Origin: Eubacteriales bacterium
Lineage (GTDB): Bacteria; Bacillota; Clostridia; Oscillospirales; CAG-272
Reading direction: 5' to 3'
Assembly: GCA_045643285.1 (NCBI GenBank)
Contig: JAZUKN010000014.1
Span: forward strand, 7,772 to 71,771
Length of the DNA stretch: 64,000 nucleotides
Below the pieces are notes generated by a model. That model saw only the letters and a program-made list of their open reading frames with translations, made no database searches and was not told the DNA's origin. Within the stretch, counting starts at the first letter, position 1. Every line of letters starts with the position of its first letter. Shown here piece by piece: positions 462 to 55,369 of the stretch. A program made the position numbers and the translations under genes.

Positions 462-806
462 CACGGCTACGCACGTAACCACATTTTTTTACCGTAGGGG
501 AGGGGTTTCCCCTCCCGCCGGATTTGCACAAACTCCACGGATTCCAACCACACGAACGATTCAACAAGCCGCCCTCTTTGAGGGAGGGGGACCGCTTGCG
601 GTGGAAGGAGAGAAAAATCTACGCTTTTGCGGCAAAAGGTAGAAAACACTTCGTGTTTTCAAATTGATTGCCACTGCGCGTGGGGCGCACAAGAAGACCG
701 ACGCGGCCTTCTTGTGAATCATCCCGCCAAAGGGGGAAGGGCTTCGCATTCCCCCTTTGGAATCCCCTTTGCTACAGAGTAACTGCAAGATTTTTGTTTG
801 CTTTGT
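462..806. repeat. Mosaic hairpin repeat, copy 1 (head hairpin at 492-520; tail abuts the hisZ stop codon)
   Basis: Module order on the + strand: cacggctacgcacg...; ccgtaggggaggggtttcccctcccgccggatttgcaca; aaaaggtagaaaacacttcgtgttttc (642-660); ccactgcgcgtggggcgcacaaga..tcttgtgaatca; ccaaagggggaagg..ccccctttgg; cccctttgctacagag; ..ctttgtctaattattc. Confidence 0.85.
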
Positions 807-810
807 CTAA

Positions 811-14940: not shown

Positions 14941-15314
14941 GCAGTACGAAAAAGCTGATGGAATCCGGGCAGATGTATCTTGAAACGATCCTTGTGCTGA
15001 CCGAAAAGAACGGTCAGGTGCGCTCGATAGACGTGTGCGACGAAATGGGCTACTCGAAGCCGTCGGTCAGCCGCGCAGTGTCGAAATTGAAGACGGACGG
15101 ATATATAACAGTCGACGGCGGCGGATATATCACGCTGACGGATAGCGGACGGACGGTAGCCGAGAAAATATACGAGCGGCATACGGTGCTGACGGAGTTT
15201 ATCGCACGGCTTGGAGTCTCACGCGAAACGGCGGCAGAGGACGCGTGCAAGATCGAACACGACATAAGCGACGAGACTTTTGAAGCGATGAAAAAACACG
15301 TCAAATTGAAGTAA
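14937..15314 (+). CDS. DtxR/MntR family metal-dependent transcriptional regulator
   Basis: 125 aa. MYLETILVL...IDVCDEMGYSKPSVSRAVSKLKTDGYI...ERHTVLTEFI. Its ATG overlaps the TetR stop (ATGA at 14937-14940). Confidence 0.8.
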   Translation: MSSTKKLMESGQMYLETILVLTEKNGQVRSIDVCDEMGYSKPSVSRAVSKLKTDGYITVDGGGYITLTDSGRTVAEKIYERHTVLTEFIARLGVSRETAAEDACKIEHDISDETFEAMKKHVKLK

Positions 15315-15640
15315 GAAGTAATAGTGAATAGGGAAGAAGTAGACAAAGTGAGCGAAAATATTGCATTTTCTTTGTAACAAAGGGGTTCAACCGAGATGCG
15401 GAGCATCTCGACGACTTCGTTTACGAAGTCGGTAGGCGTGAATTGGACGAAGTCCCTTCCCCCTAAGCGCGGTGATTCACAAGAGCGTCGCGGTACGCTC
15501 TTGTGCGCCGTCCGCGTAGGACATCCCACGAACCCAAACGTTAGGTTTGGATAAATTCTGCGGCAGGAGTAAACCCCTGCCCTACAGATGCGGAATGTTA
15601 TATCGTGCGAATCCGTGAGATTTGTGCAAGTTAAAGAAAA
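15306..15640. repeat. Mosaic hairpin repeat, copy 2 (tail overlaps the DtxR-like gene stop; head ends at 15587)
   Basis: Starts ttgaagtaagaagtaatagtgaatag..gaagtagacaaag. Continues ctttgtaacaaagggg, gagatgcggagcatctc, gacttcgtttacgaagtc, gtgattcacaagagcg..cgctcttgtgcgcc, aacccaaacgttaggtttgg, cggcaggagtaaacccctgccctacag. Confidence 0.85.
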
Positions 15641-15720
15641 GTGAAGTATGCGCTTCGCGCAAGTGAAGTTGCCAAAGGCAGTGAAGTTACGCTTCGCGTA
15701 GTGAAGTTTGCGCTTCGCGC
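15641..15720 (+). repeat. Mini-hairpin array A: 4 units of ~20 nt (constant GTGAAGT spacer plus variable triloop palindrome)
   Basis: gtgaagta-tgcgcttcgcgca / agtgaagt-tgccaaaggca / gtgaagtt-acgcttcgcgt / agtgaagttt-gcgcttcgcgc. Ends 25 nt before the activase gene start. Confidence 0.85.
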
Positions 15721-15747
15721 AAGTTTTGGAAAGGAGACACACCCGTG

Positions 15748-18415: not shown

Positions 18416-18496
18416 AGATGATCGCTGCTCTGTTTTCGTATAGGGAGACTGATATGGAAGAAAACGTTGTGGACGTTTTCAAAATTCGTTTTTTAC

Positions 18497-18800
18497 AACT
18501 ATGCACGAACTCCACCCCGTATGCTGTATGGCAGGGGCTTGTCTCCTGCCGCCGGATTTGCACTTACTTTATATAGGCAAAAGGTAGAAAACGACTTACG
18601 TCGTTTTCAAATTATTTTCTTTTTCCACTACGCGTGGGGCTGCATAACCGAGTTCACTCCGTGAACTCGACGAGATGCTCCGCATCTCGGTTGGACACCT
18701 CCGTTGCCGGGTCCTTATGAATCCAGGCAACTTAGGGGGAAGGTCGCTTCGCTCTATTCCCCCTAAGGACCCCTTTGTTGCTAAGTAAGATCAAATCGCT
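18497..18800. repeat. Mosaic hairpin repeat, copy 3a (head first on the + strand)
   Basis: ctatgcacgaactccacc; ctgtatggcaggggcttgtctcctgccgccggatttgcac; gaaaacgacttacgtcgttttc (18587-18608); gagttcactccgtgaactc; gagatgctccgcatctc; cttagggggaagg..ccccctaagg; cccctttgttgctaag. Confidence 0.85.
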
Positions 18801-18837
18801 TCTTCAACTTACCACATAAAATCGACTACGTCTTTCT

Positions 18838-19050
18838 TCATAATGAGCGTCAGCGCGCTATTATTAACGACTCAAATCCTCTTCAGCGTCGCACTCACTT
18901 TGTGACAAAGGGGAGTTTCCAAAGAGGGGAAATGTGCTTGCACCTTGCCCCTCTTTGGCGCGGTGATTCACAAGAGCGTCGCGGTACGCTCTTGTGCGCC
19001 CCACGCGCAGTGGCAATATAATAATATGAAAACACGAAGTGTTTTCTACT
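18838..19050. repeat. Mosaic hairpin repeat, copy 3b (inverted relative to 3a; tails face each other)
   Basis: cataatgagcgtcagcgcgctatta..gaggattt-type module; ctttgtgacaaagggg; ccaaagagggg..cccctctttgg; gtgattcacaagagcg..cgctcttgtgcgcc; ccacgcgcagtgg; gaaaacacgaagtgttttc (19028-19046). Confidence 0.85.
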
Positions 19051-19057
19051 TCTCTAC

Positions 19058-19098
19058 AAAAAAAGTAAAACGGAAACATTCCTATGCTTCCGTTTTAC
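19058..19098 (-). terminator. Intrinsic terminator of ybaK (stem begins at the stop codon)
   Basis: Minus strand reads gtaaaacggaa-gcataggaatg-ttccgttttac followed by ttttttt. Confidence 0.75.
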
Positions 19099-19565
19099 TT
19101 TGTCAGTCCTGTGTATTCCGCCTCAACGTACCTTGCAAGCTCGTCCGGCGCGACGCGAAGCTGAAGCCCTCGCTGACCTGCACTGACGTAAATTTTGTCC
19201 CACAGGGCTGCCGTCTCGTCGATGTACGTCGGGAATTTTTTCTTCATCCCGACGGGTGAACAGCCGCCGCGGATGTATCCCGTGAGCGGAAGAAGCTCCT
19301 TCACGTGGATCATCTCGACGCGCTTCACTCCTGCCGCGACCGCGCATTTCTTTAAGTCAAGCTCGTACGCTACGGGGATAACGAAAACTTCGTATCCGCC
19401 TTTGTCGTCACGGCAGACGAGTGTTTTGAACATACAGTCGGGATCAAGACCGAGCATTTCTGCCGCGTGGACGCCGGATAGATCGCTCTCGTCAACCTCG
19501 TATGTTACGGTACCGTACTCTATCCCTGCCGAATCAAGCAGGCGCATCGCGTTCGTTTTTGTCAT
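19095..19565 (-). CDS. ybaK: Cys-tRNA(Pro)/Cys-tRNA(Cys) deacylase YbaK
   Basis: 156 aa. MTKTNAMRLLDSAGIEY...FKTLV...GYIRGGCSPVGMKK is the YbaK/EbsC signature. Confidence 0.85.
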   Translation of the reverse strand: MTKTNAMRLLDSAGIEYGTVTYEVDESDLSGVHAAEMLGLDPDCMFKTLVCRDDKGGYEVFVIPVAYELDLKKCAVAAGVKRVEMIHVKELLPLTGYIRGGCSPVGMKKKFPTYIDETAALWDKIYVSAGQRGLQLRVAPDELARYVEAEYTGLTK

Positions 19566-24459: not shown

Positions 24460-24561
24460 AGTTCTCTCTTTTTTTATTGCAAAATTGTTATTTTAATAAT
24501 ACTCTTTATGGGATAAAGATGCCGCAAATCTTACGGCTGTGCGTGAAATCTCTTTTTTATA

Positions 24562-24897
24562 CTGTAGGGCGGGGGCTTGTCTCCCGCCGCCAGATTTGCA
24601 CACACTTCACATAGAAAAAGGTAGAAAATGTCGGGGACGTTTTAAATTATTTTCTTTTGTCCTGCGTATGAAATACGCGGCGGACGGGCGCACATTCAAC
24701 CAAACCTAACGTTTGGCGTCGTTGTGTCCTACGCGGACGGCGGACAAGAGCGTGATTCGACGCTCTTGTCAATCACCGAACCAAAGGGGGAAGGTCGCTT
24801 CGCTCTATTCCCCCTTTGGAAACCCCTTTGTTACAAAGTTTGTGCGACGTTATCGAGGATTTAACCCGTGGGGTAATAGCGCGCTGACGCTCATACG
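24562..24897. repeat. Mosaic hairpin repeat, copy 4 (most complete head-to-tail exemplar)
   Basis: ctgtagggcgggggcttgtctcccgccgccagatttgcaca; gaaaatgtcggggacgtttta; gtcctgcgtatgaaatacgcggcggac; caaacctaacgtttgg; gacaagagcgtgattcgacgctcttgtc; ccaaagggggaagg..ccccctttgg; cccctttgttacaaag; gtgcgacg..gaggattta..taatagcgcgctgacgctcat. Confidence 0.85.
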
Positions 24898-24970
24898 TTT
24901 TTGTATACAAGGTTATAGTGCAGTGAATAGGGGTTTTGTCTTAATTTGCCATTTTTCACTTGCATCTTTC

Positions 24971-25927
24971 TCAGAACGTTACGACTTCTTCTTCGGGTGC
25001 GGTTGCCGGGGCGAGAGACAGTACCTCAAGTGCCGCCAGCTTTCCGCCCGGTTCTTCGCCGTAGATCGACGCATCGACCGACACGACCTTCGCCTTGACG
25101 TAATACCACGCCTTATTCTTGAACGTCATATTGTTCTTGACGTAAATGCTGATGAACTGGATATCGTTCGCACAGCAGGTCATCGCAAAGCGTCCGATAA
25201 GGAATCCGTTTGCGGCGACTGCGCTGATCTGTGCCGCCTGCGCGCGCATCGTCACCGTTTTGCCTTCGTACTTGTCCACGTTATCCATTACGTCAAAGTA
25301 GAACACTCCGAAATCCGCGTCGCTGACGTCTATCTCGTCTTTTGTGAGGTCGAACGGGGAAGCGTCGAACTGAGCGTCCATTGTGCCGTCCTCGTATTCG
25401 TATACGACCTGCACGCGCATATTCACTGCCTTTACCAGACTGCGGTACGCCATTTTCTTCGAGTCGTCCGTAAAACGGTTGAAGATCACTATATCCGAAT
25501 TGCGGAACTGCTCAACGAGCATCGCGCGGAGGTTCTTTGAATAAGCATCGAACGTGGTCGAATCGACGGTCGTCATGATTTCGACGAGCTGCCACCCATC
25601 CGGATATACTATCTCAAGCGGCGCGTTTCCGTCCCACATTCCGTTGTATTCTATCGCCACGATGTCGGGCGCGTATTTCCGCTCAATGTCTTCGTACAGC
25701 GCGGAATTAAAGTCTTCTTCATCCTCGACGGACACGAGCGTGACGTTTTTTTCGCGGAGATTTTTTTCGTCGTATTCTTCGATACCCTCTTCGCAGACGA
25801 TCAGCACGATCTTTCTGCCGCCGCAGATCTGTCTGTTCTCGAAAAAGCGGTTTACCATTACGGTTTTGCCGGATTCAAGCAGTCCGTTGAAGAGGAAAAC
25901 GGGTACTTCTCTCGGTTGTTTTTTCAT
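24971..25927 (-). CDS. G3E/CobW-like P-loop domain lacking the CxCC motif, fused to a DUF1980 (TIGR03943)-like C-terminal domain
   Basis: 318 aa. Walker A FNGLLESGKT, DIVAIEYNG and FNRFTD resemble CobW G-motifs, with no GCxCC. The C-terminal half contains GRFAMTCCANDIQF, the CC-x-x-D hallmark I recall from DUF1980 proteins. Lies 21 nt downstream of the cobW-like gene. Confidence 0.55.
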   Translation of the reverse strand: MKKQPREVPVFLFNGLLESGKTVMVNRFFENRQICGGRKIVLIVCEEGIEEYDEKNLREKNVTLVSVEDEEDFNSALYEDIERKYAPDIVAIEYNGMWDGNAPLEIVYPDGWQLVEIMTTVDSTTFDAYSKNLRAMLVEQFRNSDIVIFNRFTDDSKKMAYRSLVKAVNMRVQVVYEYEDGTMDAQFDASPFDLTKDEIDVSDADFGVFYFDVMDNVDKYEGKTVTMRAQAAQISAVAANGFLIGRFAMTCCANDIQFISIYVKNNMTFKNKAWYYVKAKVVSVDASIYGEEPGGKLAALEVLSLAPATAPEEEVVTF

Positions 25928-25948: not shown

Positions 25949-27070
25949 TTACAGTCCGAACAGCTCGCAGAGAGCGTGCTCGTCGAGCTTTGTGCCGATG
26001 ACGCAGAGTCGTCCCGTGTAGTCTGCGGAGCCGTCGCGGATCTCGTATTCGCCGGGCGTGAGGTCGAACTGGAGCCACTTGCCGTCCGTTGTTTCGACGA
26101 TGCCCTTTGCGCGGATGATCACGCCGACGGGGTTTTCTTCCGCCGCGAGGACGGAGAGTGCCTTGTCGAGTGCATCGCGGTCGAACTTCTTCGGGGTTTC
26201 CTTGCCCCAGTTCGTGAAGATTTCGTCCGCGTCGTGACCGTGGTGGTGATGATGGTGGTGATGATGCTCGTGGTGGTGTTCGTCATCATCGTCGTCGTCA
26301 TGGTGGTGGCAGTGGCATTCGTGTTCGTCATCGTCGTCATCATCGTGGTGATGGTGGTGATGATGTTCATGCTCTTCGCCTTCTTCGTCGTGGTGGTGAC
26401 AGCAGCAATCGTCGTCATCATCGTCATCGTGATGAGCGGCGGCTATTGCGGCAAGAAGCTCGGCGGCGAGGGAGTCCTGCTTTTCCATGGCGGTACGCAT
26501 TACGTCGCCGGAGATCTCGTCCCACGGAGTCGTGATGATCGCCGCCTTCGGGTTGTGTTCCTTGATGAGTGCGACTACTGCTTCGAGCTTGTCGTCGGTG
26601 AGCTTTTGTGTGCGGCTCAAAATGATACAGCCGGCGTTTTCGATCTGGTCATTGAAGAATTCGCCGAAGTTCTTCATATACATTTTCGCTTTTGTCGCGT
26701 CGACGACTGCCGTAAAGCTCGACAGTACGGCTTTTCCGTCGGTGTCTGCGCCCTGGGCGGCGTGGATGACGTCGGAGAGCTTGCCGACTCCTGACGGCTC
26801 AATGATGATTCTGTCGGGAGAATATTTTGCGACGACTTCGGCGAGTGCTTCGCGGAAATCGCCTACAAGGGAACAGCAGATACAGCCGGAATTGATCTCG
26901 GACACTTCAATTCCGGCATCTTTCATGAATCCGCCGTCGATGCCTATTTCGCCGAATTCGTTCTCGACGAGGACGAGTTTTTCGCCTGAATAACTTTCGG
27001 CGATGAGTTTTTTGATGAGAGTTGTTTTTCCGGCTCCGAGGAATCCGGAAATGATGTCTATTTTTGTCAT
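25949..27070 (-). CDS. COG0523/CobW-family metallochaperone GTPase with a ~70-aa His/Asp/Cys-rich insert
   Basis: ORF 25949..27259. Start moved to ATG 27070 (GGAGG RBS; MTKIDIISGFLGAGKTTLI). GCICC metal motif. Insert AAHHDDDDDDDCCCHHHDEEGEEHEHHHHHHHDDDDDDEHECHCHHHDDDDDDEHHHEHHHHHHHHHGHD, followed by a CobW_C-like end. Confidence 0.85.
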   Translation of the reverse strand: MTKIDIISGFLGAGKTTLIKKLIAESYSGEKLVLVENEFGEIGIDGGFMKDAGIEVSEINSGCICCSLVGDFREALAEVVAKYSPDRIIIEPSGVGKLSDVIHAAQGADTDGKAVLSSFTAVVDATKAKMYMKNFGEFFNDQIENAGCIILSRTQKLTDDKLEAVVALIKEHNPKAAIITTPWDEISGDVMRTAMEKQDSLAAELLAAIAAAHHDDDDDDDCCCHHHDEEGEEHEHHHHHHHDDDDDDEHECHCHHHDDDDDDEHHHEHHHHHHHHHGHDADEIFTNWGKETPKKFDRDALDKALSVLAAEENPVGVIIRAKGIVETTDGKWLQFDLTPGEYEIRDGSADYTGRLCVIGTKLDEHALCELFGL

Positions 27071-27131
27071 GGTTACGCCTCCGTAAAACCGAAACGGTCT
27101 TTTCTTTTGATGAAAATATTTTAACTTATAC

Positions 27132-27160
27132 ATTCTATCACAAAATGTAAGGAAATGCAA
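27132..27160 (-). promoter_or_regulatory. Promoter TTGCAT-17-TAGAAT with extended -10 TG (COG0523 gene pair)
   Basis: Minus strand reads ttgcatttccttacattttgtgatagaat, between the STAS terminator and the cobW-like start. Confidence 0.55.
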
Positions 27161-27200
27161 GGATTTGGGAAAGAAAACGCCGTGGAGTTTTCCTTTTCCG

Positions 27201-27227
27201 CAAAATAAAAAGCGCAAACGCGCTTCT
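27201..27227 (-). terminator. Intrinsic terminator closing the NRPS/PP2C-kinase/STAS operon
   Basis: Minus strand, right after the STAS TAA: aagcgc-gttt-gcgctt followed by tttattttg. Short 6-bp GC-rich stem. Confidence 0.5.
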
Positions 27228-27530
27228 TTATTTTTCCGTGATAATGATTTTTTTGTCAAGTCCCGTCAGACGGAAGATACTTGCGATCTCCGTACCGGCG
27301 TTCACCACCGAAAACCATGCGCCGATCTCTTTCGCTTTTCTGTGGCACGCCACGACCTGTCTCAGTCCCGACGACGCTATGTACTCGACTTTGTCAAAAT
27401 CAAGCACTATCGACTTCGCTTCTTCGATCGCGTCGATCTCTTTTCCAAGCTCCGGCGACGATGCCGTATCGAGCCAGCCGTCAAGCGCGAGAGTGATCTT
27501 TCCGTCTTCGTTTGTCTTTGTGATCGTCAT
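27228..27530 (-). CDS. STAS-domain anti-sigma-factor antagonist (RsbV/SpoIIAA-like)
   Basis: 100 aa. LDFDKVEYIASSGLRQVV carries the conserved phosphorylatable Ser context. The ATG overlaps the stop of the upstream phosphatase/kinase gene (ATGA 27527-27530). Confidence 0.8.
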   Translation of the reverse strand: MTITKTNEDGKITLALDGWLDTASSPELGKEIDAIEEAKSIVLDFDKVEYIASSGLRQVVACHRKAKEIGAWFSVVNAGTEIASIFRLTGLDKKIIITEK

Positions 27531-29515
27531 TTTCTGTCACCTCCGAGATATTTTATCATTGTTAAAATGTTTTTGCCGTTCGTGTATTCGTAGTTGATCT
27601 CGTCGACCGCCGAGAACGCGATGAACCGCCCAAGACCGCCCATTTGAACGTCCGGATCGTAGTCCCCTGCTCCGACTCCTTCGCGCGGATCAAACTCTTT
27701 TCCGCCGTCCTCAAAGCGCATCAGTATCCTGTCGGACACCGCGAGACGGAAGCTGATCTTTTCTTTCTCCGCGTCTTTATCTTTGAACGCATACGACACG
27801 ATATTGACGAAGCATTCCTCCGCCGCGAGACACAGCTCAAGCTGTTTCTGTCTCGGAAGCGGAAGCGAAAGTATCGCATCCTTGATTTTATCAAACTCGC
27901 TCTGTTCCACGTCGAGTGACAGTTCCGTCGTGTCCTTTACGGTAAGCGAGAGCATCGTTATGTCGTCGTGCTGTTCACTGCCGTCCGCGAACTCATCGAG
28001 GGCATGGCTGACGTATCCGACAATATCTGGCGCGTGAGACGGGCGGAACGACGAAAGCAGCTCTTCGAGCCGTTTTTCGCCGAAGAAGTGCTTCTCGCTG
28101 TCGGTAGCCTCGGTCACTCCGTCGGTGTAGAGAAGCAGTGTTTCTCCCATTGAGAGCTGCTCGACTGCCGATGTGTATTCCTCTCCCTCAAATAAACCGA
28201 GGATCACTCCGTTTGCCTCAGAAAGAGTGCGGACGTTTTCACCCACGACATAGGGAAGATTGTGTCCGGCGTTCGAGTAGGTGAGCGTCTTCGTGCGGCT
28301 GTCGTAAATGCCGACGAACGCCGTAACGAACAGCATTTCCGTATTGTTTGCGGCAAGCGCGGAGTTCGTTTTTTCGAGTATCTCGTCCGGAGGAAGATTC
28401 ATTTTCGCATACTGATGAATGAGCGTCAGCGTCACCGCCATGAAGATCGACGCGGCGATACCCTTTCCCGACACATCGGCTATCACGGTCAGCACGCGGT
28501 TTTCGTCAAGCGGAACGTAGTCGTATAGGTCGCCTGCGACTTCGTTTGCCGGCTTCATCATCGCCGACAGCTCGTACCGCTCGTATATCGGCCTGCCCGT
28601 CGGCAAAAAACCCTTTTGGATGTTCGCGGCGACATCAAGCTCCGTTTCGCGTCTTTCGCTTTCACGGGTGAGCGCTTCGATATTCCGAAGATAGCTGCCG
28701 ATGTTGTCGCTCATAGTGCCGAACGCATCAGCTATCATTGCAAATTCATCACTTTCGGTTCCGGCAAGCGAGATTTTTTCGCTCTTTCCTCCGGCAGCGA
28801 AGCTCGTCATCGCCTTGCTGAGTTTCTTCGCAGGTACGGATACCTGTCCGCGGATGACGAAATACATACTGATGCCCACGGCGGCGATCACGGCGGCGAG
28901 TGCCAGACCGATGATCAGAAAATACCTGTTTATCTCTCTGTATATTTCGATATTGTCAACGTCCACGCCGACAGATACACGGTTACCGTAGGAATCCTCA
29001 ATGATCGTTTCGGTTATCAGCTCGTGACCGAAAAGCGACTTCGTGACGATATGCGAGAACTGCTTCTTGCCCATCCATAAATTAAGCTCTTCGGTCGTGT
29101 AATTGTTTTCCTTCACAAGACCGACAAAGTGATCGGGGTATTTTTCCTCCATTTCGGGATCTTTGTACGCCGCGCAAACATACTGAAATACGCCTCTATC
29201 CGGGTACGGCACCAGCACGAATGCGTAGTCGATATCGAACCACTCGCACATGAATTCACCGTAAGTCAGCGCGAGATCGTGGTATTCGGGCAAGATCGGC
29301 ATTCCTGCCGTCTCATATTCGCCCTTGATTATGTCGGAGTACATCGTGACAAGCTGTTCGGACGTTTTTTCGGTCTTTCGGCGGATTATGGTCGACACTC
29401 CGAAGTACGACGCGGCAAGAAGCACCGCAAGTGCAGAGAGCAGGATAAGCACAGCCCTCTGCGACACACGCGCGGCTATGGAATTATAGTGTTTTTTCTT
29501 ACTTCCGTCTTTCAT
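27527..29515 (-). CDS. Membrane sensor with HAMP, PP2C (SpoIIE/RsbU-type) phosphatase and RsbW/SpoIIAB-type HATPase kinase domains
   Basis: ORF 27527..29608. Start moved to ATG 29515 (MKDGSKKKHYNS...), which overlaps the NRPS stop. Two TM segments flank a ~190-aa outside domain, then a HAMP-like linker. PP2C core: AANIQKGFLP...AGDLYDY...VIADVSGKGIAASIFM...LLLYTDGVTEA. C-terminal HATPase: AAEECFVNIVSYAF, FEDGGKEFDP, GGLGRFIAFSAVDE. Confidence 0.8.
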   Translation of the reverse strand: MKDGSKKKHYNSIAARVSQRAVLILLSALAVLLAASYFGVSTIIRRKTEKTSEQLVTMYSDIIKGEYETAGMPILPEYHDLALTYGEFMCEWFDIDYAFVLVPYPDRGVFQYVCAAYKDPEMEEKYPDHFVGLVKENNYTTEELNLWMGKKQFSHIVTKSLFGHELITETIIEDSYGNRVSVGVDVDNIEIYREINRYFLIIGLALAAVIAAVGISMYFVIRGQVSVPAKKLSKAMTSFAAGGKSEKISLAGTESDEFAMIADAFGTMSDNIGSYLRNIEALTRESERRETELDVAANIQKGFLPTGRPIYERYELSAMMKPANEVAGDLYDYVPLDENRVLTVIADVSGKGIAASIFMAVTLTLIHQYAKMNLPPDEILEKTNSALAANNTEMLFVTAFVGIYDSRTKTLTYSNAGHNLPYVVGENVRTLSEANGVILGLFEGEEYTSAVEQLSMGETLLLYTDGVTEATDSEKHFFGEKRLEELLSSFRPSHAPDIVGYVSHALDEFADGSEQHDDITMLSLTVKDTTELSLDVEQSEFDKIKDAILSLPLPRQKQLELCLAAEECFVNIVSYAFKDKDAEKEKISFRLAVSDRILMRFEDGGKEFDPREGVGAGDYDPDVQMGGLGRFIAFSAVDEINYEYTNGKNILTMIKYLGGDRK

Positions 29516-32500
29516 TGTTCGTCTCCGAGTTCGTTTATATCGAAATAATCGAGCGTCATTATGCTGTTTATCGCGCGGTCGAGGTATGCGTCGTCGACGA
29601 GCGGCCACGAGAAACCTATCCTGTACAGCACGTTCGTCGTGAAGCGGTTGTCACAGTCGACGGCGTGCGCGTCCTTTATGTCGTATGCCGCAAGTCCGCC
29701 GAGCTTTGCGTTAAATCTGTCGTCGCCGAGCTTTTTACGGAATTCGTCGTAGTATACGTCGTCCTGTTCGGCGATTATCGTGATACCGTTGCGGTTGCAG
29801 GCATCGATGATCTTCATTTCGTCAAATCCGTAGCGGTTGTCGGCGTTGAACGCGGTGAAGCGGTCGTCCACTCCTGCGAGAAGCACGACGGCTCTTGCTG
29901 TGCAGTCGACGGGTGAGAAGCGCATCGGGTCCGTCATGTGGCTGATCGGGTACTTGCCCATTACGGAAAATCCACGGATGCCGGAGAGAAACATATTCGT
30001 CTCAAGGTTTGCCTGGAATTCGCCGTCCCTGTGCCGTCCCATGAGGTTGCCGACTCTTATTACCCGGCCTCTCATACCTCTTTCTATTGCTTCGAACATA
30101 CAAAGCTCCGCATTGTACTTTGAGATAGCGTATTTGTTGTCCATGTCGTCGATCACGAACAGCTCGTTTTCGTGCATTCTTATCTGCTTTTCGTAGCTTT
30201 CGACTGTGTGGATTCCGGGAACGGACACCGTCGAGATCTGCACGAGGCGCGCACCTCTCTTTTCGCAGATCGAAATGAGGTTCTTCACGCCGCCGACGTT
30301 GATCCGTTTAAGAATATCGCTGTCGGAGAAATGCTTTACGCACGCCGCGCAGTTGATAACCGTGTCAAACGGTACGTCGGCGAGTGTATCTCCGAGAGAA
30401 GAATCCGTTATATCGGCTTCGATGAGCGTTATCCTGTCTCTGAGCGCGTCTTCAAATGCGTCGGAGAAGTAGTAGATGAGCATTGTCTTCAGTCTGGCGA
30501 GCGGACTGTCGTATTCCCCTCTGCGGACAAGGCAGTAAATATGTCCTTTTTCGGATTTTATGAGTTCTTCGAGAACGTGTATGCCGAGGAATCCGACCGC
30601 ACCCGTGAGAAGCACGTTTCCGAGCGGCTCTCTCTTCACGTCCGCCGCATATTTTACGGTATTGTATTTCAGTGCGTCGCGCGTCTTTGAAGAGATATTG
30701 CCGTCGGCGGAATCGTCGTCCTGTTTTGCTTTTTTCGCCTTGCCGTCGCGCTCTTCGATGAATCCGGCGAGCATTTCGGGAGTCGGATTGTCGAAAATAT
30801 CGCCGTACTTCACGTCTATCCCGTCGGACATCAGCATCATCGTGACCTTTGACGCGGACAGCGACGTACCGCCGTTCTCGAAGAAGTTGTCGTCGGCGTA
30901 TACTTCGTCAAGCGAAAGGACGGACGAGAATATCTCGCAGAGTCTTTCTTCAAGCGATTTCTTCGCGGCGCGTCTGCCCCTCTTGTCGGCGGATTTCTTT
31001 TTGATGTTCGCAGTTTCCGGAAGTGCTTTTTTGTCGATTTTTCCGTTAGGAGTAAGCGGAATGGCATCAAGCTGCATTATGACAGCCGGCACCATATAGT
31101 ATGTGAGCCGTTCTTTCAGATGCTCCGTGAGCGCGTCGATGTCAGTCGGCTCGGAGGCAGTGAAGAACGCCGCGAGGTAGTCTTCTCCGCCGTTGTTGCG
31201 GACGACGACTTTAGCCTGCTTGACTGTGCCGAAAGAGCAAATCACCTTTTCGATCTCGTCAAGCTCTACTCTGAATCCGCGGAGCTTGACCTGGTTGTCG
31301 AGCCGTCCGGAGAATTCTATTTCCGCGTCTCGGTTCACTCTGACGAGGTCGCCGCTGTGGTACGCCCTCAGTCCGCGAAGCTCGGTAAACGCCGCGGCAG
31401 TCTTTTCGGGCAGCTTCACGTACCCTCGCCCGACTCCTTCTCCGCATATCATAAGCTCACCGGATGCGTACGGCGGAAGTATGTTGCCGTCGGTGTCGGT
31501 CACATAGAATCGGACGTTGCCGGTAGGTCTGCCGATAGTGATACCGTTTCCGGAGTGAAGCTCCTTCATTGAACAGCAAATCGAAGTTTCCGTCGGGCCG
31601 TAACCGTTTACTATCTGTAATTCGGATGAGGTCTTCTTCAGCGAATCGTAAAGCGACGGCGGGAACGCTTCCGCACCGGATACTATCGTTGTAAGTCCGC
31701 GTATCGCCTCTTCAAATTCCTTTACGCTTATCGCGTTGTTGAGGAACGACGGAGTGCAGGTCATAAAGCGGACGTCGTTGTCTTTCATCAACTTTGCGAG
31801 TGCTATCGGGTTGTGTATTTCGTCCTCCGTCGCCATGACGACAGTCTTTCCGCGGTACAGAGCGAGATAAATCTCATACAGCGACATATCGAACGAGATC
31901 GAGCTTACGGCGAGCGACGCACCGCCATCTTTTCCGTCGGTGAAGAATCGGAGGACGAGCTGATCGGTCTCGACGAAGTTCGAGAAGTTCCTGTGCTCGA
32001 TCATAACGCCCTTGGGAGTTCCCGTAGAGCCGGAGGTATAGATGCAGTAAGCGAGCGCGTCCGGCTGAACGTCGACATTCGGGTTCTCGCGGTTGTTGTT
32101 TTCGAGCAGTTCTTCAACGGTCAGCGTTCTGTACGGCTTTGTGTCGGCGAATAGATCGGGTTTTGCGGCTTTGATATTCTCCGTCGTGATGACGAATTTC
32201 GCCGACGCATTCGTGAGGCAGTAGTCTATTCTTTCGTCGGGATAGGACGGTAGCATCGGTAAGAACGCGCCGCCGGATTTTTGCAGACCTATCTCGCATA
32301 TCATGACTTCCTTTGTCCGCTCCAGCACAAGTCCGACTATATCGTCTTTGACGACGCCGAGAGAAACAAGCGAATTTGCGACGGCGTTCGCCTGACTGTT
32401 CAGTTCCCCGAACGTCAGTGATTCGCCTGCGGCGACAACGGCTGTTCTGTCGGGATGAAGAGCGGCTTGTTCTTTGATCACACGGTGTACTCTCTTGCCT

Positions 32501-35500
32501 GTAGTCTTCACGTCGGATGCGTTGAGAACGGAATACGTCTCTTCCGCGTCATGCGACATCATCGAAACCGACGAGAGCTTTTCTGCCGTCATAAAGTTCT
32601 CAGCAACCGCGTCGACCGACGAAATAAGCGACTCAACGAGCCTGCGGCAGAACATATCCCTGCGGTAATCCGCAACGATGACGGGCTTTCCGGCGCGGAT
32701 GTATACGTTCATCGAAATCGGCGACTTTGCGACGGACGGTGCGACGTCGATGACCTCCGCAGTCTTTCCGCAGAGTGAATCAAACGCGAACGTCTCGCCC
32801 TGATATACGAATATTATATCTGATCTTATTCCGTATGCGCCGGACACCTCGGCAAACGATAAGAGGTCGTTCGACATATTGCCGAGAAGCTCAGTCTGAG
32901 TATCGCGGATGAGCTTTTCGGGAGCGTCGCCGCCGTTTATTTTTGCGTAAACGGGGACGGTCTTTACGAGCATCGTGACCGAGCCTGCGAGCCGCGAGTC
33001 ACTGCGTCCGTTGTAGATCGTTGTGAAGACTGTGTCTTCCCTGTGGATGAACCGCGCAAGGACATAAGCGAAAACGGAGTTCCAGAACGAGTTTGCCGTC
33101 ACGCCGTGTTCGCGGCAGTATTTTTTGATCTTTTCGTTGTCGACGGAGCATACTTTCTTTATGCTTCCGGCTTCTTTTTCGACGGTTTCAGGGCATTTTC
33201 CGGGCAGGCATTCCGCGTCCGCGCCTCTGAAAATGCTGTCGTAGTATTCCTTGGCGCGTGCGAGCCGGTCTGTTTTTCTCGCCTGTTCTTCGTCGAGCGC
33301 GGCTTCAAATCCTGTGTATGTTTCTTTTTCGACTTCTTCGCCGACATATGCTTTCGTTATATCCGAGAGGATTATGCTCTCGCTCGTGCCGTCGGAGATG
33401 ATGTGATGAGCGTCGGTGAAGAAGTATTTTCCGCCGTCCGTTTCGTATATTGCGGCTCTGATAAGCGGTTCTCCGAGTAAGTTGAACGGCTTTACAAGCG
33501 CGGAGCTGTCGGGCAGGCAGGCGCACTTTATGACGGGCACTTCGATTTCTGCGCCGTCGTTTCTCTTCGCTCTGACGTTGCCCTCGTTGTCGGTGAAAAG
33601 CACGGTCTTGACGTACGGATGAGCGTCAAGCGCAGTCTTCACGGCAGAGGCGAGCTTTTCGGAATCGACTGACTCGTCGAGCTTTATGAGAAGCGGCATA
33701 TTATAGAGCACGCTGTCGGAATTCGAGAGACATTCAATGAAAATGCCTTTCTGCGTCTCGGTTATCGGGTAGTCGGGGAAAATTTCGTATTCCTCTGCTT
33801 TTTCGGCGGACGAGACGAACTTTTCAAGCAGTCTGACCGTCGGATTTTCTTTTATGTCCGCGATCTTTATAACGCACGGGAACGCTTTCGAGAGCATCAC
33901 GTTGAGCTTCACCGCGCCGATTGACGTAAGTCCTGCGTCGTAAATGTCGCTCTCTATGCCGAACGCCTTGTGTCCGATAACTTCGGCGATTATATCGTAA
34001 ATCTTCTGCTGTGATCCGTTTTCGGGAGCTGTCATATCGGAAGACCGTCTTTCCGGCACGGGAAGAGCGCGGCGGTTGACTTTCTGATTCTGATTCAGCG
34101 GAATCTTATCTATCCTCATCGTGACAGCCGGCACCATGTACGGCGGTTTTTCGGCTCTGATGAAGTCTCCGAGCGCGCGAACGTCGATCTCACCGTCGGA
34201 AACGACGTAAGCCGCGATGAATTTTCCGCCTGCCGGATCGTCGAATGCCGCGACAGTTGCGTCCTTTACGCCGGGAAAACGTCTGACGACCTCTTCGACC
34301 TCCGTAAGCTCCACTCTGAATCCGCGGACTTTGACCTGTGCGTCGCGTCTGCCGACGAATTGGAGATTTCCGTCGCCCATATATCGCACGATGTCGCCGG
34401 TGCGGTATACTCTTTCGTACCCTTCGCAGTCGTCAAACGGATTTGTACCGTATGCTTCTGCGGTCTTTTCAGGTCTGTTGAGATAACCGCGCGTGACGTG
34501 AGGACCTGCTATCCACAGTTCTCCCACTGCGCCGACGGGCAGAAGTGCGCCGCCCTTTCCGACGACGTACGCTTTGAGGTTGTCGACGGCTTTGCCTATC
34601 GGCACGTCTCTGTATCGCCCGTCAAGCGTGAATATCGACGTGATGACTGACCCCTCGGACGGACCGTATGCGTTGTGGAAAGCGAATCCCTCCGGCACGT
34701 CAAGCGGTATCAGCTTTTCTCCTGCCACGGTGAGGTGACGGAGAGTGCTCAGTCCGCCCATTTCGGCAAACTGCCTGCCGACCTGCATCGTCATGACGGT
34801 GTGAGTTATGCCGTTTTTGTTGAAATATTCGGCGAGGGCAGGGAAGTCGAGCCTTATCTCGTCGGAGATGATGTGCAGTTCCGCGCCGGACGTGACTGCC
34901 GGATACATATCGTAAACGTTTGCGTCAAAACCGTAGCTTGCGTAAGCCGCGACGCGCGAATCCGTGCCGATGCCGTAGAATTTCTTTTCCCATTCCGTCG
35001 TGACTACGGTATTTCCATGCTCGAACATAACGCCTTTCGGAACGCCGGTGGAGCCGGATGTGTATATCATCACAAACAGATCGTGCAGTCCGGGTGTCGG
35101 AAGCTGAATGTCCCGGAGCGTAACGTCCGACTCTTCGAGCGAATCAAGCGACGAGAGCGGTATCCTCTGCCCGGTGTACTCTTCTGTTATTATTCCGTCG
35201 AGCGCGTCCGCGTAAATGACAGCCGCCGCACGGGAATCTCCGATCATAAGATTCAGCCTCTCCGGCGGATAAGACGGATCGAGCGGCAAATATGCGCCTC
35301 CTGCCTTGAGTACGGCAAGAGAGCAGATGAGCATATACTCCGATCTCGGGATAAGCACGCCGACGACCTTTTTTCGTCCGATGCCGTTTTTCACGAGATA
35401 TTTTGCTATCGTGTCCGTTATTTCATCGATATAACGGTAGGTGTATCTGTTTTCTTCGTAGACAAGGCAAATTTTGTCGGGCGTTTTCGCCGCCTGCTCG

Positions 35501-50487: not shown

Positions 50488-50587
50488 GGGATAAGAGGAA
50501 AAAACGCGCTTCGCGGTTTTCGGGTTTGCGTGAATCACACGGCGGCTCACGAAATATCAAGGATTCGCACGAAATGATATTTCATGT

Positions 50588-50672
50588 TTACACCGTAGGG
50601 GAGGGGGTCCCCCTCCCGCGAATTTGAACAAATCTCACATAGGCGCAAGGAAGAAAACACGAAGTGTTTTCT
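50588..50672. repeat. Mosaic hairpin repeat, copy 6 (partial: head plus GAAAAC hairpin)
   Basis: ccgtaggggagggggtccccctcccgcgaatttgaaca..cacatagg..gaaaacacgaagtgttttc (50653-50671). Confidence 0.75.
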
Positions 50673-50728
50673 ATCTAATTATTTGTTTGTAACGTTTTCT
50701 TCCTTTTTTCCACGGAAAAGAAAAAAAC

Positions 50729-50757
50729 TTGCATTTTCCCCGTTCCCGTGATATACT
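50729..50757 (+). promoter_or_regulatory. Promoter TTGCAT-17-TATACT with extended -10 TG (GH20-like gene)
   Basis: ttgcattttccccgttcccgtgatatact. Confidence 0.55.
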
Positions 50758-50805
50758 TATTTCAATCAAAAAATGCGAAATTTCGCATAATTCCGGAGGG
50801 AAACC

Positions 50806-52899
50806 ATGCTTTACCCAAGACCGCTTAAATCAAAACTTACAAAAGAATTTCTCACCCTTGATAAGCTGACCGTTTCCGGTGCGTGCGCCGAAACTTTCGT
50901 TGCCGCCGCCGCTTTCCTCGGCTTTGACGCAAAGATCGTTTCGAGATGCCCGAAGATCACGCTTTCCACTGACGAAAACCTCGACGGACTTGACGCATAT
51001 ACCGTAAAAGTCGGCAAAAAAGTCGAACTGATCGGACGCGACGAAGACGCACTCGCACGAGGCGTGTGGACCGTCCTCGGACTCGTCGAAAAGGACGGCG
51101 ACACATATAAGATCCCGTGTGGTGAGGTCAATGACCGCGCGTATATGAAGATGCGCGGAGTTCACCTCTTCGTGCCGGCGGCAGATTCCGTCGAAGAATG
51201 TAAGCGCGTCATCGCAGAAGCGGCACGGCTCAAATATAACACCGTCATCCTCGAAACAGGCGGCGGCGTTGAATTCAAAAAGCACCCCGAAGTCAACCGC
51301 GCGTGGACGAAATTCTGCCGTGATGCACGAAACCACGTCGGCGGTCCGCAGGGACTTCAGGGCTCGCAGGCATATTGGAAAGACTCTACACATGTAGAAC
51401 TTTCCGGTGGCGGTTTTATCTCGCAGGAACAGCTCAGAGAGATCACCGACTACTGCCGTCTCCTCCGTTTGGAGCTTATCCCCGAAATACAGTCCCTCTC
51501 CCACGCATACTACCTCACACTTGCCGATAAGTCTATCGCCGAGCGCCCGTTTGAGGAGTGGCCCGACAGCTATTGCCCGTCGAATCCGAGATCGTACAAG
51601 CTCTACGAGGAGTGCGCCGAAGAGATCATCGACATAATCAAGCCGAAGCGAGTCTCTATCGGTCACGACGAAGTGCGTATTCTCGGCGAATGCCCGCTTT
51701 GCCGTAAAAAGAGCGGTTCCGAGCTTCTCGCAGGTGACATAAACAAGCTCCACAAATTCTATAAAAAGCACGGCATACAGATCATGATGTGGGGTGAAAA
51801 ACTCCAGGATTTCATGAACTTCAAGGGTTGGCGCATGGGCGGTGTCAAGGAAGGTCCGTTCACCGACAGATACGGACGCGACTACATCCTCGATTCCACG
51901 AACGGCGCGCTTGATATGATCCCGAACGACGTTCTGATGCTCGACTGGTACTATTCATGGGGTTACGACACCGAAAAGGACTTCCTCGAACGCGGATTCT
52001 CCGAGATCTACGGCAACTTCCGCGGATCGCTTATCGCGGATTGGGACAAACGCTCGAAGATCGAGAATGTCGTCGGCGCGGAAGTGTCGACATGGTGTAT
52101 GCCCGACGAGCGCGAGATCGGTTACAACGGCTGGTTCTACGAGCTTGCGTTCTCGGCGGCTGTGCTGTGGCGTGACGATTTCTGCGACGCAAAGCGTGAC
52201 GAATGGTCAGACGAAGCTGAGGCAATGCAACCCGTACTGAGACGTGAGCTTCGCGGTTCCGACGACTACGACGGCACGTCAAAGGGACTTAAATCCCTCA
52301 CACTCGCAGACAAAGGCGACAAACAGGCAACACCTGCAAAAGTCCAGCCGTCCGTTGACAGATTCATCGCAAAGAAGATCGCCGACAACGCGCTCGGCGA
52401 GGCGACGGAGCTTGAAGTCGGAAAGAAAGCCGATTCGCTCGTCTTCTTCCACGCGGCAGACAACGCGCCGAAGGACGTTATCAAGACGTGGTACTTCCTC
52501 GATCCGGCACCGAGAATGCCGGCTTCGTATTCCGTCGATTACGAGGACGGGCTGACGATCCGTGTACCCGTGATGTTTCCTCAGATGATCGGCGTATACG
52601 ACTCGACGAGAGAGTTCACACGCCCCGTGGGTGACGAAAACGTGTCTCTCGACGTTGATGACACGAAGAAAGCAAAGGTCAACAACCTTTCTCCGATGTT
52701 CGCGCAGAAGGACGTTTGGCGTGCGACGGCTCTGTATTTCTGCCGCGGGATCGCGCTTGATACAGACGACGGCGAGAAGACCGTGTACGCATACGAATGG
52801 AAGAATCCGAGACCGGAACATAAGATACTCCGCGTCCGCGTGATCGACGAGGGGTGTTCAAAGATGAACGTGCATCTCTACGGCGTCGGAACGGTTTGA
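50806..52899 (+). CDS. GH20-like glycoside hydrolase (beta-N-acetylhexosaminidase family) with extra C-terminal domains
   Basis: 697 aa. GH20b-like N-domain, RGVHLFVP...LKYNTVILE TIM-barrel start, and SIGHDEV resembling the GH20 D-E catalytic pair. GGAGGG RBS. Confidence 0.55.
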   Translation: MLYPRPLKSKLTKEFLTLDKLTVSGACAETFVAAAAFLGFDAKIVSRCPKITLSTDENLDGLDAYTVKVGKKVELIGRDEDALARGVWTVLGLVEKDGDTYKIPCGEVNDRAYMKMRGVHLFVPAADSVEECKRVIAEAARLKYNTVILETGGGVEFKKHPEVNRAWTKFCRDARNHVGGPQGLQGSQAYWKDSTHVELSGGGFISQEQLREITDYCRLLRLELIPEIQSLSHAYYLTLADKSIAERPFEEWPDSYCPSNPRSYKLYEECAEEIIDIIKPKRVSIGHDEVRILGECPLCRKKSGSELLAGDINKLHKFYKKHGIQIMMWGEKLQDFMNFKGWRMGGVKEGPFTDRYGRDYILDSTNGALDMIPNDVLMLDWYYSWGYDTEKDFLERGFSEIYGNFRGSLIADWDKRSKIENVVGAEVSTWCMPDEREIGYNGWFYELAFSAAVLWRDDFCDAKRDEWSDEAEAMQPVLRRELRGSDDYDGTSKGLKSLTLADKGDKQATPAKVQPSVDRFIAKKIADNALGEATELEVGKKADSLVFFHAADNAPKDVIKTWYFLDPAPRMPASYSVDYEDGLTIRVPVMFPQMIGVYDSTREFTRPVGDENVSLDVDDTKKAKVNNLSPMFAQKDVWRATALYFCRGIALDTDDGEKTVYAYEWKNPRPEHKILRVRVIDEGCSKMNVHLYGVGTV

Positions 52900-53387
52900 A
52901 GTAAGAAGTAATAGTGAAGAAGTAGACAAAGTTATGATTGCCTGCGGCAAACGATGATGCTGACGCAGTGATGATACGCTACGCGTAACGATGATTGCGC
53001 TCCGCGCAAGTTTCTTTGATTTTGCACACATAAACGTATGAGCGGCAGCGCGCTGTTACCTCACGGGTTAAATCCTCTTCACTGTCGCACTCGCTTTGTG
53101 ACAAAGGGGAGTCCAACCGAGATGCAAAGCATCTCGACGACTTCGTTTACGAAGTCGGTAGGCGTGAATGTGCTTGCACCTTCCCCCTTTGGCGGGTAGA
53201 TTGACAAGAAGTACGCGAAAGTGATTCACCGAGATGCGAAGCAGCTCGTCGGTTTCGACGAAGTCGAATACCGGCTTGTCCGCCGTCCGCCGCGTATTTC
53301 ATACGCAGGACAAAAACGAACCCAAACGTAAGGTTTGGATTAATTCGGCGGCAGGAGCAACGCGTATACATACGCACTGTCCTACAG
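52895..53387. repeat. Mosaic hairpin repeat, copy 7 (tail overlaps the GH20-like gene stop; head ends at 53387)
   Basis: Starts ttgaagtaagaagtaatagtgaagaagtagacaaag. Then array B, the gagcggcagcgcgctgtta..aaatcctc module, ctttgtgacaaagggg, gagatgcaaagcatctc, gacttcgtttacgaagtc, gtccgccgtccgccgcgtatttcatacgcaggac, aacccaaacgtaaggtttgg, cggcaggagcaacgcgtatacatacgcactgtcctacag. Confidence 0.85.
52932..53008 (+). repeat. Mini-hairpin array B: 4 units (GATGAT-type spacer plus variable triloop palindrome)
   Basis: ttatgat-tgcctgcggca / aacgatgatg-ctgacgcag / tgatgat-acgctacgcgt / aacgatgat-tgcgctccgcgca. Confidence 0.85.
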
Positions 53388-53517
53388 TATAAAGAGATGA
53401 GGTTCGCGCGTAGCCGTGGGGGTTCACGAAATCCAGCGAGACGTCGAGGACGCCGTCCCATACGGTATAATGTAAAAAAATAAAATCTATTGCAATTATA
53501 AAGGAAAGGACAAAACC

Positions 53518-54831: not shown

Positions 54832-54909
54832 CAAAGCAAAGATCCGTGCGGAAGAGAAAAAACCGCACGGATTTTTCTTTGGGGAAAGAAACAAACTTGT
54901 TTTTTCTGC

Positions 54910-55335: not shown

Positions 55336-55369
55336 GCGTAGTCACTAATAAATGATAAGTTACGCATAA

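Follow-up and report, generated by a model that had tools for sequence, protein, structure and literature searches.

Arrays of short hairpins in the window

A stretch of 64,000 nucleotides from a Eubacteriales bacterium of the CAG-272 lineage (assembly GCA_045643285.1, contig JAZUKN010000014.1) is referred to below as the window, and all window coordinates refer to the whole of that stretch. It contains four arrays, named A to D, in which a short conserved linear segment (the linker) alternates with small hairpins, located next to genes for a glycyl-radical-enzyme activase (A), a GH20-domain protein (B), a GNAT protein (C) and a protein with the C-terminus of a YegS-type lipid kinase (D); these gene calls, made in an annotation from the letters alone (the first-pass annotation), were confirmed. 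The arrays are real and represent copies of the Gut-1 motif, which has already been catalogued in Rfam (RF01706; Weinberg 2010, Genome Biol 11:R31). Their components are as follows.

15641-15722, plus strand: array A, with GTGAAGT linkers starting at 15641, 15663, 15681 and 15701
15649-15661, 15670-15680, 15688-15700 and 15708-15722, plus strand: hairpins of array A, alternating with its linkers
52934-53009, plus strand: array B, with ATGAT linkers starting at 52934, 52954, 52971 and 52991
52938-52950, 52960-52968, 52975-52987 and 52995-53009, plus strand: hairpins of array B
63134-63161, both strands: bidirectional intrinsic terminator of the GNAT gene, with the stem GCACACC/GGTGTGC, an A-tract before it and a T-tract after it
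63165-63248, plus strand: array C, with linkers ATGATG, ATGATG, ATGATA and ATGATA
63171-63185, 63191-63207, 63212-63228 and 63236-63248, plus strand: hairpins of array C
63249-63329, no strand assigned: A/T-rich palindromic centre between arrays C and D, partly conserved in three related strains (L241-L243)
63330-63430, minus strand: array D, with ATGATA and ATGATG linkers between its hairpins
63418-63430, 63393-63411, 63373-63389, 63353-63369 and 63330-63348, minus strand: hairpins of array D

The hairpins of array A have the stems TGCGC-ttc-GCGCA, TGCC-aaa-GGCA, TACGC-ttc-GCGTA and TTGCGC-ttc-GCGCAA, and the activase start codon (GTG at 15745 or ATG at 15748) is located 25 nt past the end of the array. 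Array C is preceded by the GNAT terminator, the hairpin proper of which occupies 63140-63157, and begins 4 nt past its T-tract, while the first hairpin of array D (63418-63430) follows immediately after the kinase stop codon at 63431-63433.

All four arrays reported in the first-pass annotation are present at the positions given there and lie far above chance expectation. A purpose-made detector of hairpin chains with TGA-containing junctions found three arrays in the window, while 40 shuffled sequences yielded 0.3 on average, array B being missed because one of its hairpins has only three Watson-Crick pairs, and these shuffles together with the Infernal E-values given below rule out a chance or low-complexity artefact. 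When folded as RNA, arrays C and D gave z-scores of -2.2 to -4.0 and arrays A and B of -0.9 to -2.9. The minimum-energy fold of array C is a row of four hairpins (z -2.2), array D likewise forms a simple row and reached -3.1 in sense and -4.0 in antisense, and competing long-range folds arise in A and B because their units resemble one another.

The more rigid part of the earlier description has to be relaxed. Instead of exactly four units in each array, array D on the minus strand comprises six hairpins if the terminator-like hairpin at 63297-63321 is included; the palindromes, described as always perfect, contain an A.C mismatch in the D unit at 63373-63389, and the second unit of array B has just three Watson-Crick pairs plus wobbles. 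The constant linear segment does recur between the hairpins, but in C and D it is partly drawn into the stems by A-U and G.U pairing, which leaves approximately GAU unpaired, in agreement with the Rfam consensus structure. Likewise, the palindromes mostly differ from unit to unit, although the stems are not fully free to vary, since the TGCGCTTCGCGCA stem occurs in the first and fourth units of A and again in D, and the TTGCCTGCGGCAA stem in the first unit of B, the fourth of C and the Gut-1 seed sequences of 2010.

Most of the array hairpins lack the U-tract of an intrinsic terminator. A terminator scan flagged the GNAT terminator and, within the arrays, the last hairpin of B, which together with GTTTCTTTG has a terminator-like score, and the D hairpins at 63418-63430 and 63352-63370, the latter pair by virtue of T residues in the linkers. 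The hairpin GAAAAAATATC-gaa-GATATTTTTTC in the palindromic centre (63297-63321) appeared terminator-like on both strands, by eye and with the purpose-made detector, but was not flagged by the scan.

Correspondence to the Gut-1 motif

When the whole window was scanned against Rfam at curated thresholds, a single match emerged, namely Gut-1 on array D with 53.4 bits, the curated threshold of this family being 50 bits. Permissive local Infernal scans scored D at 58.4 bits (E 3e-11), C at 48.8 bits (E 9e-9) and A at 42.3 bits (E 2e-7), in each case on the strand that had been proposed in the first-pass annotation, which had not identified the arrays as this published motif. Array B gave no Gut-1 match at E<=10 and is too diverged to score. 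Only D thus reaches the curated score, and C, A and B are sub-threshold relatives of Gut-1. The arrays display the architecture of the motif, with at least three tandem hairpins, UGAAAU-like linkers and covarying stems, and the hairpin UUGCCUGCGGCA is common to the 2010 seed alignment and to arrays B and C.

Gut-1 was described from 43 examples, all from human-gut metagenomes, with a consensus of three hairpins that have CUUCG-like loops and are separated by GUGAAAU; it was graded as certainly RNA ("RNA: Y") and as not cis-regulatory, without an assigned function or host, and as absent from sequenced organisms (Weinberg 2010, Genome Biol 11:R31). In the seed alignment of that study the arrays directly follow terminators, a stop codon or a tRNA gene, and an inverted array then follows each of them. 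No paper on Gut-1 or RF01706 other than Weinberg 2010 was found in the searchable literature.

The arrays described here share with this motif the C-G-closed tandem short hairpins, the CUUCG-like loops, the (G)UGAAAU-type linkers and the gut source, as well as the frequent terminator before and inverted copy after. They differ from it in that the model has three hairpins and GUGAAAU or GUGAUAU linkers, whereas the window has four to six hairpins and GTGAAGT or ATGATRT linkers; moreover, Gut-1 was confined to metagenomes in 2010, whereas Gut-1-like (sub-threshold) arrays are now also evident in genome assemblies, including that of the cultured Faecalibacterium langellae.

Distribution and unit anatomy in gut Clostridia

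Further arrays were sought by scanning one genome per species for three ATGATRT linkers 11-17 nt apart, and at least 120 loci were listed, about half of them true arrays; the family figures rest on these listed matches. From 91 raw detections, 13 loci that were clearly outside the family were removed, leaving 77 arrays from 52 sources, with 184 distinct units and 127 different stems. Among the matches listed, nearly all sources are gut Clostridia of human, ruminant or other origin (Acutalibacteraceae, Faecousia, Limivicinus, Ruminococcus and unclassified 'Eubacteriales'), and nine arrays in 18 tested loci pass the Rfam Gut-1 threshold on the strand that is called sense here. Gut-1 can thereby be placed in named gut and rumen Clostridia. 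The cultured and named strain F. langellae CNCM I-4541 carries a convergent pair of arrays with ATGATG linkers (L200, 6049-6213), which are to be regarded as Gut-1-like rather than as confirmed members because this locus, among the 18 tested, missed the threshold.

The search demanded at least three linkers per array, and the 91 raw detections carried three (36 arrays), four (47), five (6), six (1) or seven (1), so that four, taken at first for a fixed number, is only the mode. As many as four arrays occur within a single 8-kb locus (e.g. L128 and L237). The basic unit consists of a 7-8-nt linker, (A/G)TGA(A/T)(A/G)T, and, after it, a palindrome that is short, has a loop of 3-4 nt and is closed by a C-G pair; linkers are uniform inside an array.

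Across the 184 distinct units, 96% of the stem pairs are Watson-Crick (42 mismatches in 1184 pairs). There are 14 mismatches of the G.T/T.G type, equivalent to G.U on the sense strand, against 18 of the A.C/C.A type, equivalent to G.U on the other strand, and because the two are balanced the strand-fixing signature of a structured RNA is absent. Selection thus appears to act on the hairpin structure, but probably not as sense RNA. Loops and closing pairs behave differently, in that C-G closes 165 of the 184 hairpins (90%) and loops of the form T..C (TTC, TGC, TCC, TTGC, TGAC and others) occur 103 times against a single G..A loop (p = 1e-29). A general hairpin habit of these genomes was discarded as an explanation, since 76 terminator-like hairpins outside the arrays have neither the C-G closure nor the T..C loops. 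The tetraloops show no GNRA preference (11 GNRA, 21 GNYA), a spectrum that fits the loop preferences of DNA better than those of RNA. By nearest-neighbour energies the antisense strand is the more stable by 0.2-0.4 kcal/mol per hairpin, with slightly stronger z-scores; selection of a strand through folding energy was rejected because the difference is so small.

In one sub-type, observed at L214 (296-410), L128 (1960-2045), L148 (400-490), L208, L198 and L213, the flank after the array carries a second copy of the first hairpin's 3' arm, which covaries with the 5' arm of that hairpin (ATCCGTTCC/GGAACGGAT, ATTCGTTCC/GGAACGAAT and TGTTTGCCC/GGGCAAACA), so that the whole array could be closed by a long-range stem or could switch between pairings.

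A phage origin of the family was also considered and rejected. Two linker-pattern scans of viral contigs yielded about 220 loci, almost exclusively A/T-rich tandem repeats, with one true Gut-1-like array (L246, 8646-8740, in IMG/VR contig 3300018494_004896), which may represent a prophage flank or host DNA.

Genomic placement and transcription

Only robust neighbours at a distance of up to 400 nt from an array were used to assess placement, namely tRNA genes and open reading frames (ORFs) with 200 codons or more, which gave 59 features. Of these, 44 touch an array by their 3' end (23 tRNA genes and 21 ORFs) and 15 by an ORF 5' end; the tRNA genes, which represent many different specificities, invariably face the array with their 3' end. 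At such gene or tRNA 3' ends the array is on the strand of the gene 29 times and on the opposite strand 15 times, a ratio of about 2:1. The constant orientation relative to the adjoining gene that had been noted earlier is hence true in the window but is only a bias in the family.

Of 72 arrays, 18 have a terminator-like hairpin plus T-tract whose end lies no more than 12 nt from their first linker, compared with 88 of 3000 random positions (2.9%). Inverted pairs are frequent, 15 of them convergent and three divergent. In a first sub-type the order is terminator, array and inverted array, with the predicted -35 box of the next gene abutting the second array; at the loci concerned (L168, L214 and L234) the outer end of that second array abuts a near-consensus promoter, TTGAAA-17-TATAAT. 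A second sub-type, with units ATGATATA[CA..TG], forms a divergent pair that points outwards to a terminator or promoter (L140 and L190). At L168 (150-260), L234 (170-280) and L214 (395-500) the composite junction TGATATAATATCCGTTCC resembles an extended -10 box. The TGATATAAT junction of type-ii composites has a similar appearance, but a promoter at that point is a tentative lead at most, given that a transcript with this start would lose part of the putative closing stem.

In the window, array B is located 33 nt past the GH20 stop codon and array D directly past that of the kinase, with no terminator in between in either case, and no promoter-like or terminator-like site was detected between the upstream gene for a DtxR-like repressor and the activase gene, the interval that holds array A. 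For these reasons A, B and D must, as judged from the sequence, be transcribed in sense and into the untranslated regions (UTRs) of window genes. The first-pass annotation had interpreted the arrays as UTR elements, and this placement is reasonable for A, B and D, but C and many relatives start right after a terminator, 15 of the flanking features are gene 5' ends or promoters, and there is no preference for G.U on either strand. Sense transcription as in the window does not hold for the family as a whole, and the UTR interpretation is valid for this window only. The data speak neither for nor against the alternative idea of a periodic binding platform for a protein.

No transposase or other mobilizing enzyme was detected among 150 ORFs neighbouring arrays and 20 ORFs of the window. 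Genes of the PF05635 family (23S_rRNA_IVP, a four-helix bundle) were observed 1-155 nt from Gut-1-like arrays at three of about 51 loci, as listed here.

L124, 3651-4049: PF05635 gene
L198, 4864-5214: PF05635 gene
L167, 6523-6867: PF05635 gene

This is a mild enrichment (3 of 150 neighbour ORFs) of what is the most frequent Pfam family in the set, tied at three with two GDSL-lipase families, and these genes are a possible partner or co-travelling cassette of the arrays.

Turnover between strains

The locus between the GNAT and lipid-kinase genes could be compared with three metagenome contigs (L241-L243) whose GNAT proteins are 99% identical to that of the window, the closest named relative of which is from Huintestinicola sp. 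(73% identity). At the activase locus of array A no close relative was found besides the source contig, the next match being 63% identical. Between the window and the three contigs, the flanks of the GNAT/kinase locus (on one side the GNAT gene and its terminator, which is unchanged, on the other the lipid-kinase gene) share 96.5-99.1% identity, whereas the array region between them (230-270 nt) has an identity of 62-71%.

L241 and L243 keep the architecture of four hairpins, an A/T-rich central hairpin and four inverted hairpins, with GTGAAGT/ACTTCAC linkers in place of ATGATRT/AYATCAT and with different stems. L242 is a recombinant that has the first unit of the window and the remainder from the other allele, and the kinase stop codon also differs among alleles (TGA versus TAA). 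In the L241 allele there is a unit that matches the first unit of array A, which lies 47 kb away in the window, at 29 of 30 positions, and the lone difference affects the middle base of the loop and keeps the T..C pattern. If the two arms are on the same strand, pairing between the linkers of opposite arms becomes possible, and the linker types of both arms change together. All four strains bear an array at this locus and its content alone differs, in a manner more suggestive of copies exchanging cassettes than of point mutation.

Gut-1 as a proposed interspersed repeat

It is proposed, at a probability of about 0.5, that Gut-1 is an interspersed repeat of gut Clostridia (NCBI order Eubacteriales) comparable to repetitive extragenic palindromic (REP) sequences and bacterial interspersed mosaic elements (BIMEs), and not a single-purpose RNA gene. 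The multi-copy, mosaic and partly inverted arrangement, the location at the ends of transcription units, the 2:1 orientation, the symmetric mismatches and the replacement between strains suit this proposal better than they suit a lone RNA gene or a specialized UTR element. The strand-specific loops, and the stable DNA mini-hairpin motif that they form on the complementary strand, are also counted in its favour. The units are intergenic, follow stop codons, terminators and tRNA genes, and some single units are common to different loci; as to copy number, there are four arrays in 64 kb and several in individual 8-kb loci, with inverted pairs and mosaics.

As a repeat of this kind, Gut-1 arrays would lengthen and shorten through slippage between identical linkers, the palindromes would be kept perfect by hairpin-templated correction or compensatory selection, and copies would move between loci through recombination or gene conversion. 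Where no terminator intervenes, as with A, B and D, an array would enter the mRNA and fold into a row of stable hairpins, and in a REP-like manner this row may block 3'-to-5' exonucleases or mark off one transcription unit from the next, which is probably the role of transcribed arrays. The strand-biased loops and the conserved heptamer in addition say that one strand, be it RNA or DNA, is read in single-stranded form by something sequence-specific.

According to PMC2817692, PMC3116915 and PMC3479197, the REP, BIME and REPIN (REP doublet forming hairpin) elements of Proteobacteria are abundant extragenic palindromes in composite, partly inverted clusters at gene 3' ends, form stem-loops in RNA or single-stranded DNA, carry a short conserved linear motif beside the hairpin and are bound by several proteins, and Gut-1 resembles them in the abundance, clustering, stem-loops and linear motif. 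A REP element has a conserved palindromic sequence, and its units stand in alternating orientation (PMC2817692); neither feature is found in Gut-1 arrays, which have variable stems, direct tandem units and very short linkers, reside in Clostridia and have no RAYT (REP-associated tyrosine transposase) gene that could be detected. Gut-1 is accordingly likened to REP and not filed as such, because its stems are unconserved, its units are direct repeats and an associated transposase was not found.

Several observations weigh against this proposal. Besides the variable stems and direct tandem units, these are the failure to find a transposase among the 150 neighbour and 20 window ORFs, a test with little power because RAYT genes are usually single-copy (PMC5581495); the lack of any target-site duplication or empty site among the loci inspected; the 29:15 bias towards the strand of the upstream gene; the rating as certainly RNA (Weinberg 2010, Genome Biol 11:R31); and the fact that the strain comparison covers a single locus.

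If the repeat interpretation is true, Gut-1 is a REP-like element of Firmicutes which can blur predictions of small RNAs (sRNAs) and break metagenome assemblies, and which may shape mRNA ends in abundant gut bacteria. The properties that are newly attributed to Gut-1 comprise a strand-specific loop signature that agrees with the stable DNA mini-hairpin, the placement at tRNA genes and terminators, a weak orientation bias and swapping between near-identical strains, to which the presence of Gut-1-like sub-threshold arrays in the cultured F. langellae CNCM I-4541 may be added.

Competing explanations

The loop signature gains a different aspect when the complementary strand is considered. Since loops read T..C on the linker strand, the opposite strand reads cGNAg or cGNNAg, often exactly GCGAAGC, and mini-hairpins of the GCGNAGC/GCGNNAGC type are extraordinarily stable as DNA and known from phage and plasmid replication origins and N4 promoters (PMC13037366), while related hairpins in non-template DNA (ops and opsX) recruit RfaH and the Bacteroides UpxY proteins (PMC11685472). 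In the window 9 of the 17 units read GCGNAGC (GCGAAGC, GCGGAGC or GCGTAGC) opposite the TGA linkers, and family-wide the 90% C-G closure and the GNA or GNNA loops on the strand opposite the linkers show the same sequence pattern; the known cases are single hairpins, none of them a chromosomal array of three to seven (PMC13037366, PMC11685472), and the likeness is one of sequence only. A bolder scheme may tentatively be entertained, albeit as a somewhat unlikely one, in which Gut-1 is a DNA-level system of gut Clostridia: a protein recognizing the TGA heptamer would read the cGNAg hairpins on one strand and spread arrays as cassettes behind terminators and tRNA genes, while stop codons and terminators would come from the arrays themselves, which would also insulate neighbouring transcription units.

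That Gut-1 is a functional RNA, either an sRNA or a UTR module, whose single-stranded linkers (UGAUAU, GUGAAGU or GUGAAAU) are presented between the hairpins and bind several copies of a protein or a ring oligomer in the way of TRAP-binding triplet repeats or the sponge RNAs CsrB and RsmZ, is considered unlikely. This explanation would agree with the rating as "RNA: Y" by Weinberg 2010, with the sense transcription that A, B and D seem to require, with the 29:15 preference of adjacent arrays for the strand of the upstream gene and with the homogeneous linkers, whose heptamer recurs in hairpin-free tandem repeats as would fit a sequence-specific linker reader; the covarying repeat of the first hairpin's 3' arm in the 3' flank (L214, L128 and L148) suggests alternative pairings. 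It has difficulty in accounting for sense-strand mismatches in which G.U is not overrepresented (14 versus 18), for the one-third of arrays at gene 3' ends that are antisense and the 15 of 59 flanking features that are gene 5' ends, for the many arrays that start just past a terminator and so leave no space for a promoter of their own, and for a high copy number combined with different arrays in conspecific strains at the GNAT/kinase locus. We know of no stabilizing interaction for RNA loops reading U..C, which also counts against it. The resemblance to TRAP, CsrB and RsmZ concerns the mechanism only, in that a short motif occurs many times per RNA and could engage several subunits of one protein; the CsrB motif sits in loops and TRAP targets are devoid of intervening hairpins, both unlike Gut-1. 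No candidate binding protein was identified in this analysis, and to our knowledge no reader protein comparable to those that bind these RNAs is known for Gut-1. If the RNA explanation is nevertheless true, the linkers point to a multivalent RNA-binding protein yet to be found.

It is quite unlikely that the arrays act simply as DNA, negative supercoiling or single-strandedness extruding the cGNAg mini-hairpins, and the roles that could follow from this behind heavily transcribed genes, as a supercoil buffer, as an insulator or as the place where gyrase, a nucleoid protein or a primase is loaded, are held to be just as doubtful. The combination of loop and closing pair is a DNA mini-hairpin motif on one strand (PMC13037366), and the placement behind terminators and tRNA genes, the inverted and hence orientation-independent composites, the mismatch spectrum that is symmetric between strands and the slightly better fold of the antisense strand would all suit such a role; linkers are spaced by about two helical turns. 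Nearest-neighbour energies, however, separate the strands by only the 0.2-0.4 kcal/mol per hairpin given above, the stems, at 4-9 bp, are on the short side for extruding a cruciform, a binding protein is without evidence, and the conservation of the linkers is left unexplained.

Very unlikely, finally, are non-autonomous mobile elements of the type of miniature inverted-repeat transposable elements (MITEs) or REPINs, for which a single-copy HUH/Y1 transposase would recognize a hairpin plus guide on one strand: although inverted array pairs resemble REPINs (PMC3116915, PMC3337134), features are strand-specific, identical units occur at different loci, a repeat provides the stop codon of two unrelated genes and type-ii alpha arrays are bounded by an 11-nt inverted repeat (ATATCCGTTCC...GGAACGGATAT), a Y1 transposase did not turn up among the ORFs inspected in the window and beside arrays, target duplications and empty sites were not seen, the stems are too variable for recognition of one specific hairpin, and the presence of an array in all four strains at the GNAT/kinase locus means that the presence/absence polymorphism of MITEs is not observed there. 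A likeness to clustered regularly interspaced short palindromic repeats (CRISPR) is confined to the regular alternation of a conserved segment with a variable one, since in Gut-1 the conserved part is 7-8 nt long and unpaired in place of repeats of at least 23 nt, palindromes of 9-20 nt take the place of unique non-palindromic spacers as the variable part, only three to seven units occur per array and many loci per genome, no cas genes adjoin the arrays in the window, and the threshold Rfam scan of the window contained no CRISPR repeat family.

Neighbouring repeats and minor observations

The arrays are one module in a wider set of intergenic repeats, some of which border on arrays A and B.

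15306-15349, plus strand: tandem-heptamer leader TGAAGTAAGAAGTAATAGTGAA..GAAGTAGACAAAG, overlapping the stop codon TAA (15312-15314) of the DtxR-like repressor gene
15350-15630, no strand assigned: mosaic repeat copy between this leader and array A, itself not an array
52896-52932, plus strand: second heptamer leader, starting at the TGA (52897-52899) of the GH20 gene and running into array B

In the first leader TGA or TAA recurs about every 7 nt and C is nearly absent. The 21-mer GAAGTAAGAAGTAATAGTGAA occurs twice in the window, where chance would give none, each time starting from the stop codon of an unrelated gene; one copy is directly before array B and the other about 290 nt before array A, and there are 92 exact metagenome matches, mostly from the human gut. 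The heptamer family (AGTGAAK/AAGTAAK)n, represented by loci L346-L437, has the same motif as the array A linker, and its TGA or TAA every 7 nt provides stop codons in all three frames. What comes after the heptamers is usually a G+C-rich hairpin with inverted heptamers (19 of 38 contexts), occasionally Gut-1 arrays in either orientation.

The mosaic repeat is found in seven intergenic regions of the window (479-810, 15350-15630, 18416-19194, 24460-24970, 50561-50805, 53020-53420 and 54832-55761) as modules of 30-450 nt in both orientations, with 72-100% identity and long hairpins, and the copies beside A and B have no Rfam match. An ORF inside one of these copies (54936-55448) has no Pfam match and is probably spurious.

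Three further features of the window were recorded. At 62081-62121, just 3' of the homoserine dehydrogenase gene, the palindrome GTCAT-nnn-ATGAC is repeated three times with a 14-nt period, and these palindromes resemble the operators to which a dimeric DNA-binding protein would attach. The ORF at 25949-27259 (minus strand) contains at 26234-26430 a long imperfect 12-nt repeat (GTGGTGATGATG...) that would encode a His/Asp-rich stretch, and its position next to the CobW/DUF1980 gene at 24971-25927 suggests a metal-chaperone locus. A single ORF of 2990 codons occupies 29512-38481 on the minus strand.

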